DNA from: Eledone cirrhosa
Lineage: Eukaryota
Direction of reading: 5' to 3'
Length of the DNA: 64,000 nt
NCBI GenBank assembly: GCA_964016885.1
Contig: OZ024752.1
Span: 49,538,001 to 49,602,000, forward strand
Below the pieces are notes generated by a model that was not told where the DNA came from, did no database searches, and saw nothing but the letters and a program-made list of their open reading frames with translations. This document shows positions 890-1,644 of the stretch, piece by piece (the stretch's first letter is position 1; the number at the start of each line of letters is the position of its first letter). The translations under genes were made by a program, and so were the position numbers.

Positions 890-1644
890 GTGAGCGTCCC
901 TATATCTGTGGTGCTTGTGGAGTACAGTACAGCCAGAGCCATAGCTTGAAAAGCCACATTACTAATAAGCATGAGGGCAGAATGGGTTACTACATCAAAG
1001 AGAAACGGCACAGAGCTCACAGGGGGATAGGTTATATGACTGCTTCAGTCCCGGGTACCGATATGCCCCTATTCAAGATACCGCCAACTTCAGCTGTTCT
1101 CAATGCGAGTTTAACAGCTGGCCTTGACCTATCAAGTAAATTTTCTGAGCCTCTTAAGGCTTCGTTTCTTGATAATACTCTAAACCAACTGAAATCTAGT
1201 CCACAGCAACATAGTATCCTGAACGGCCACTCTTCACCCCACTGCGCTGATCTCCTGCAGAATCATTGCCCTCCGGGTCCTGGTTTTCCACCAGCACACC
1301 ATCACGGGCCTCTTCAGTACCAGGCTTCCAGGGGAACTGTGAAGATGGAACCTTTAGATAACGGCTCCAACCAAGCCATGGATCTTAGCATACGGTCTTC
1401 ACGTATTGGGCATGGTCATGCTAATGGCCACAACCAGCAGTGTTCCGATGTAAATGGTCTCGACGACTGTAAGCATGCTGAAAAATTAAAAACACTACGT
1501 GGCAATGTAGTCCGTATGCTGGCAATTCTGGTTCCAAACTTGGATTTTGAAGAGAAGGGGATAAGTGCAGAGGGAGATTCTGTGGACGAACTTCTCCAGG
1601 ATGTCATTGAAAGCAATTCCCCTGAAGAGGAAATTCCAGAATAG
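890..1644 (+). CDS. Terminal coding exon of a C2H2 zinc-finger transcription factor (upstream exons outside the window)
   Basis: Polypyrimidine tract and AG acceptor at 888-889. A phase-1 junction gives (G)ERPYICGACGVQYSQSHSLKSHITNKH, i.e. the GERP end of a TGERP-type linker plus C-x2-C-x12-H-x4-H. The frame is open to TAG at 1642-1644 and GC is far above the flanks. Contains GLDLS, AMDLS, VKME and a C-terminal amphipathic module. Confidence 0.93.

Follow-up and report, generated by a model that had tools for sequence, protein, structure and literature searches.

Why should a C2H2 zinc-finger (ZNF) protein end in the tail of a MORC ATPase? The question is raised by a stretch of 64,000 nucleotides from the Eledone cirrhosa genome (hereafter, the window), in which a sequence-only reading had pointed to a MORC3-like segment of 45 residues at positions 1480-1614 of the forward strand. 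The translation of this segment proved exact, and the segment lies in the last coding exon of a ZNF gene (890-1644, forward strand; 250 codons and a stop), which follows an AG acceptor at 888-889, opens inside a TGERP linker, carries C2H2 finger 3 (901-972, forward strand) and ends with the stop codon TAG at 1642-1644. An upstream exon with fingers 1 and 2 was located outside the window (G000:C12:49454020-49455499), and the GT-AG intron between the two exons, 83,390 bases long, splits the TGERP linker that joins finger 2 to finger 3. The upstream exon corresponds to residues 13-507 of a 757-residue Argonauta protein, the closest named homologue (95-96% identity), and the two exons together span residues 13-757 of it; the exon encoding the first 12 residues was not located in the E. 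cirrhosa genome. A contig of a related organism (run X6, which is RNA by guess only) joins both exons exactly at the predicted junction, and 19 of the 22 coding differences in the contigs of relatives, including both of those within the tail, are synonymous. None of the runs recorded as RNA was listed as carrying the sequence, and the single true RNA run, sampled at about 2 in 100, yielded no reads on the exon, a result that counts neither way. The rest of the window (1645-64000) consists mostly of AT-rich microsatellites and repeat fragments, and no further convincing coding frame of at least 110 codons was found in it.

Assembly of the gene, a check proposed with the sequence-only reading, yielded three C2H2 fingers and none of the GHKL, S5 and CW domains: in five full-length orthologues, Pfam showed C2H2 families only. 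Judged by this content, the ZNF protein is not a member of the MORC family. It differs from MORC3 and MORC4 in lacking GHKL, S5, CW and the long coiled coil, and in possessing three C2H2 fingers, a CtBP-type motif and a Cys-x-His before the terminal module. The names given to the gene in databases are generic (myoneurin-like, ZEB2-like, ZNF366 and ZNF358-like) and tie it to no named family. One copy of a ZNF gene with this tail was found in the E. cirrhosa genome (a lower bound), and the gene looks single-copy from the sequence.

The module that the ZNF protein holds in common with MORC3 and MORC4, and more distantly with MORC1 and MORC2, comprises about 50 residues (1468-1617, forward strand), encloses the segment noted earlier, is predicted to form a helix-loop-helix, and stands at the extreme C-terminus, as it does in MORC3/4. 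A profile built from 13 mollusc ZNF tails and zero MORC sequences was scored against 1.84 billion proteins (E <=0.001) and gave 98 matches, namely, 72 of the ZNF family (23 of them fragments assigned from the tail alone), 21 MORC3/4-type tails, four tandem-module proteins and one junk match. The profile match P0138 was excluded from every class as an artefact of repeats, with 0 passing stretches. Four verified MORC proteins matched this ZNF-only profile, at E-values of 1.6e-9 to 8.8e-4 for the 1.84 billion proteins: P0123 (E 1.6e-9), whose Branchiostoma cluster mate carries GHKL, S5 and CW; P0154, a Saccoglossus MORC3-like protein; P0161, a marsupial MORC4; and P0166, which has S5 and CW. The remaining 17 of the 21 MORC-type tails are fragments classed by likeness, 16 of which sit beside verified ones in the tree. 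In the reverse direction, a search of the 3-Gb E. cirrhosa genome with the amphioxus MORC tail found the ZNF tail as its sole match (E 3.1e-7, 49% identity). A MORC profile without E. cirrhosa sequences, the members of which were chosen via the first (ZNF-tail) search, scored the ZNF tail at 67.9 bits and 2000 shuffles at 10 bits or less, and hhalign of the ZNF and MORC tail profiles, whose members were not independently chosen, gave a probability of 99.1. The MORC3-like C-terminus claimed by the sequence-only reading is thus confirmed by profile matches in both directions, and on this sequence evidence the ZNF tail and the C-terminal module of MORC3/4 are truly homologous.

Of 27 ZNF tails, at least 90% retain a Cys directly before the module (window 1468-1473), mostly in the form of Cys-x-His and often of Cys-x-x-Cys-x-His. 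This feature is specific to the ZNF family and missing from most MORC tails; the Cys/His residues of two chains in a dimer could share a metal ion.

No Pfam family matched the tail up to E 10. Against 177,635 PDB sequences, a wider ZNF-only profile matched only residues 990-1015 of human MORC2, and that weakly (E 1.4), and the MORC profile reached the end of human MORC2 at E 0.032; in the solved MORC2 CC3 entry 9KQL (a 107-residue chain), the sequence match covers the first helix only. The tail was modelled as a helix-loop-helix (pLDDT 85), and its invariant positions are mainly hydrophobic helix residues, plus one proline. Foldseek returned no match at E 0.001 for the tail model or for that of the tandem-module protein described below, and the ESM Atlas held no usable match for either, which has no bearing on novelty. 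Two structural candidates were rejected: the arginine repressor, a single-sequence PDB match to the tail at E 1.2, as chance, and a Lon protease fragment, the best VIA-align result (Z 6.2, rmsd 4.4, 87 aligned), as falling within the range of common helical bundles. The supposition that the domain combination is undescribed agrees with the literature searched (mostly outside subscription journals, main texts only), in which we found neither a C2H2 protein with a MORC tail nor the module outside MORC; the parts of PMC13218726 and PMC12216690 that were accessible make no mention of the module or of the domain combination.

Four genes with the module were found in the E. cirrhosa genome: the ZNF gene, MORC3, a MORC2-type gene and a tandem-module gene. 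The tail of MORC3, a gene that has GHKL, S5 and CW exons, is encoded by its last exon (G000:C23:2124079-2124249, L002), which was the only other genomic match of the ZNF tail (E 0.38; back-match E 0.26), and the two tails are reciprocal best non-self matches. The third match of the MORC3-tail search (C5, E 3.7) is an unrelated frame. The E. cirrhosa MORC3 module stands alone, being preceded by a long disordered linker rather than by a coiled coil. It is without seven loop residues, scores 33.3 bits against the MORC profile without its own sequence (ZNF tail, 67.9), and has a branch length of 3.58 in the module tree versus 0.24 for the ZNF tail, a comparison within one genome; its grouping with P0168 in that tree was dismissed as a meeting of long branches. 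The MORC2-type gene (G000:C19, about 8860300-8886900, minus strand) terminates in a distantly related form of the module that an intron of about 26 kb interrupts. The last exon of the tandem-module gene (G000:C4:243611557-243613872; L043, L046) has 772 codons and ends in two copies of the module; its homologues include one in Argonauta, and it matches no Pfam family. Two of the eight proteins in the tandem class have a C2H2-like pattern near the start, as detected by a regular expression and unscored by Pfam. No upstream exons could be located for the tandem-module gene, and no C2H2 pattern on the plus strand held within 120 kb. Two near-identical frames (909 and 826 codons) on the same contig, at G000:C4:243506554-243509280 and 243512992-243515469, look by eye like LINE-type reverse transcriptases.

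The ZNF family is old and conserved where its domains are concerned. A search with the tail yielded 23 proteins from 59 candidates, with 70-100% identity and with molluscs as all of the named taxa. Mean identity to 15 non-cephalopod molluscs is 0.92 for finger 1, 0.96 for fingers 2 and 3 and 0.07-0.20 for the long linkers, and the tail, which the sequence-only reading supposed to be conserved in orthologues, is indeed so (0.80, or 80%). Named members occur in cephalopods, bivalves, gastropods and a chiton, and the family is also present in the annelids Capitella, Dimorphilus and Owenia and in the brachiopod Lingula. Among the matches, many of which are unnamed, no ZNF orthologue was named from arthropods, deuterostomes or cnidarians; the MORC carriers of the module include amphioxus, a hemichordate and marsupials. 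A module tree of 64 rows leaves its deep forks open, and with them both the direction of transfer and a single origin, and no introns border the module. The simplest reading is that the ZNF gene of an early lophotrochozoan likely acquired the module as a copy from a gene of MORC3/4 type. One database protein, P0016, in which HEAT repeats are fused to a ZNF protein that is missing finger 3, is probably a faulty gene model.

Only fingers 2 and 3 are adjacent and form a linked pair, finger 1 being about 20 residues away. The contact positions of finger 3 read QHSS in six of six molluscs and QHLS in four of five annelid-type proteins checked, and those of finger 2 are identical, by eye, in molluscs and annelids. 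Such near-invariance from molluscs to annelids would fit a fixed DNA target better than a race with transposons.

Between the fingers and the tail, two short motifs were recognized. VKMEP (1339-1353, forward strand) fits the SUMO-site consensus and is poorly kept, a SUMO-type site after the fingers being present in 7 of 17 mollusc members. AMDLS (1375-1389, forward strand) is, by its sequence pattern, a PxDLS-like (CtBP-binding) motif without the proline. Of the 63 ZNF members long enough for the test, 60 show the pattern xxDL[STR], which was defined after the sequences had been inspected, in the 200 residues ahead of the tail, versus 3.3 expected from shuffles; none of 12 MORC tails does so; the canonical proline of PxDLS is present in 30 of the 63, the mollusc form being mostly without it. 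The PxDLS motif is reported to recruit CtBP (PMC9890238), and, because a motif of this type is present, the ZNF protein likely represses without needing MORC.

In the N-terminal half, the motif RRKx(T/N/S/K)(L/I/S)EDI, encoded by the upstream exon G000:C12:49454020-49455499 (residues 245-260 of P0003), is kept amid unconserved sequence in all 17 full-length mollusc members, and from this pattern it is likely a cofactor-binding site. DEVDG, which fits the caspase-3 cut consensus, is found in the N-terminal half of 14 of the same 17 members (orthologues P0006-P0032) and is missing from both cephalopod proteins and the chiton.

As to what the module does in MORC proteins, the available texts concern mainly human MORC2. 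Dimers of MORC2 in cells are reported to require its last 82 residues (PMC6892150), and residues 900-1032 form a dimer (PMC11879086); however, residues 901-975, upstream of the module, are stated to suffice for a dimer, and residues 1004-1032 (the last 29) to bind the disordered region of MORC2 itself, an interaction needed for condensates (PMC13189624). By position, the module in human MORC2 lies at about 990-1032, and 1004-1032 is its second half. MORC3 is said in a review to homodimerise via a coiled coil (PMC8627505), and mouse Morc3 at retroviruses is described as acting via SUMO and Daxx (PMC8516933).

The sequence-only reading had proposed a heterodimer of the ZNF protein with MORC. When the ZNF tail and the E. 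cirrhosa MORC3 tail were modelled together without alignments, three runs scored 0.13, 0.34 and 0.34, with 0.02 for the best of three controls; the runs share at least 63% of their contacts, and the pLDDT of the partner is at least 59. Of 78 solved pairs, 51 reached the pass mark for such models, as did 2 of 108 mismatched pairs; for eukaryotes, the figures were 39 of 65 for solved and 2 of 126 for unrelated pairs. Passes at 0.60 or lower came from just 5 of the 78 solved pairs, but from all four passing mismatches out of 180. Close cousins of the true partner also pass (10 of 12), so that the pass of the ZNF-MORC3 model cannot name the partner. Of the proposed heterodimer, a weak pass in the model thus stands, and the identity of the family member bound does not follow from it; the models weakly suggest that MORC-type modules pair with each other, leaving undistinguished which ones do so. 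The model of the tandem-module protein has four helices (pTM 0.66, from six sequences) and is compatible with two modules packing on each other.

SCAN, BTB and the C-terminal fingers of Ikaros are dimerisation domains on C2H2 proteins. Like the C2H2 proteins with ZAD, SCAN, BTB or Ikaros-type domains, the ZNF protein combines DNA-binding fingers with a small folded module that, from its sequence, is likely to pair chains. The module itself differs from ZAD, SCAN, BTB and the Ikaros fingers in being unrelated to them (no Pfam match), C-terminal, and common to a chromatin ATPase, and the ZNF gene is slow and apparently single-copy, and does not belong to an expanded family. As a rule, such domains pair with their own kind: all Drosophila ZADs are reported to homodimerise and few to heterodimerise (PMC7913770), which counts for self-pairing of the ZNF tail. 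The CtBP-recruiting proteins Snail, MECOM, ZFPM1 and PRDM16 are described as likewise having few fingers and a conserved PxDLS-type motif (PMC9890238), but the literature searched credits none of them with a MORC tail. A precedent for linking a sequence-specific factor to MORC silencing is provided by Toxoplasma, in which AP2XII-1 and AP2XI-2 are reported to recruit MORC and HDAC3; they differ in having AP2 domains and in belonging to a different kingdom, and no MORC tail shared with them is reported in the accessible part of that paper (PMC10781626).

We favour, with roughly even confidence, the reading that the tail is a borrowed self-pairing module in a conserved lophotrochozoan CtBP-type repressor. 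The module, probably a copy taken over from a gene of MORC3/4 type by an early lophotrochozoan, would let the ZNF protein pair with a second copy of itself, two modules packing as a four-helix unit; pairing would double the short reading head of fingers 2 and 3 and offer two PxDLS-like motifs to CtBP, and the product would be a dimeric CtBP-recruiting repressor of fixed target genes for which MORC3 is not required. The end of MORC2 that is homologous to the tail lies inside the 82 residues needed for dimers, which counts for a pairing role, and a class with two modules on one chain, modelled as four helices, is what would be expected if modules pack together. However, the ZNF protein has no long coil before the module, unlike MORC2, and this counts against autonomous pairing. 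We consider it rather unlikely, but deserving of attention, that the tail instead pairs with or docks on the MORC3 module, so that this chromatin-compacting ATPase would be delivered to DNA sites that the fingers recognise, at conserved genes. The tail homology is real, a disordered linker likewise precedes the solitary module of E. cirrhosa MORC3, the model of the pair gave a weak pass, MORC is recruited by transcription factors in Toxoplasma (PMC10781626), and MORC2 itself is stated to read no sequence (PMC11879086). Yet one of the three runs gave only 0.13 and the pass is shared by close cousins, and MORCs are described as constitutive C-terminal homodimers (PMC11879086, PMC8627505), so that the site may be occupied. 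Moreover, drift and the loss of seven loop residues mark the MORC3 tail of E. cirrhosa but not its ZNF tail; in this one genome they do not look like a co-evolving pair, and the constraint on the ZNF tail (80%) seems not to come from MORC3. A wider proposal, in which a lophotrochozoan ZNF repressor captured the MORC3 pairing module to aim the ATPase, the tandem family serves as partner or regulator, and the module is an undescribed interaction code common to the four genes, appears doubtful to us, though not negligible.

The binding of MORC2 residues 1004-1032 to its own disordered region, needed for condensates (PMC13189624, in part), would also fit a module that is a docking or 'sticker' surface for a disordered region or for a third protein that MORC3/4 bind as well, so that the ZNF protein would join them in nuclear condensates, and the ZNF protein outside its fingers and tail is mostly linker of low conservation. 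We regard this as improbable: invariant hydrophobic helix residues and a proline suit a packed core better than weak stickers, and the result for MORC2 may not transfer to MORC3/4. Silencing by a KRAB-zinc-finger-like system that tracks transposons within the cephalopod C2H2 expansion, to which the sequence-only reading had leaned, could draw on the reports that mouse Morc3 silences endogenous retroviruses (PMC8516933) and that coleoids have expanded C2H2 families (PMC13218726). However, the gene has just three fingers and an own CtBP-type motif, one tail-bearing copy was found (a lower bound), the fingers are 92-96% identical across molluscs with the contacts of fingers 2 and 3 nearly the same in annelids, and the family extends to bivalves, gastropods, a chiton, annelids and a brachiopod; this suggestion has therefore become very hard to believe.

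The tail thus represents a conserved module for which Pfam defines no family. It also shows that a MORC ATPase tail has been reused outside the MORC family by two kinds of gene: the ZNF gene of molluscs, annelids and a brachiopod, and the family that carries two copies. It provides a new partner domain for C2H2 factors in a large and little-studied group of animals, as well as a natural stand-alone version of the MORC3/4 tail, whose contribution in human MORCs is difficult to tell apart from that of the long coiled coil. Should binding of the tail to MORC3 prove true, it would explain for these animals by what route a MORC blind to sequence finds particular genes.
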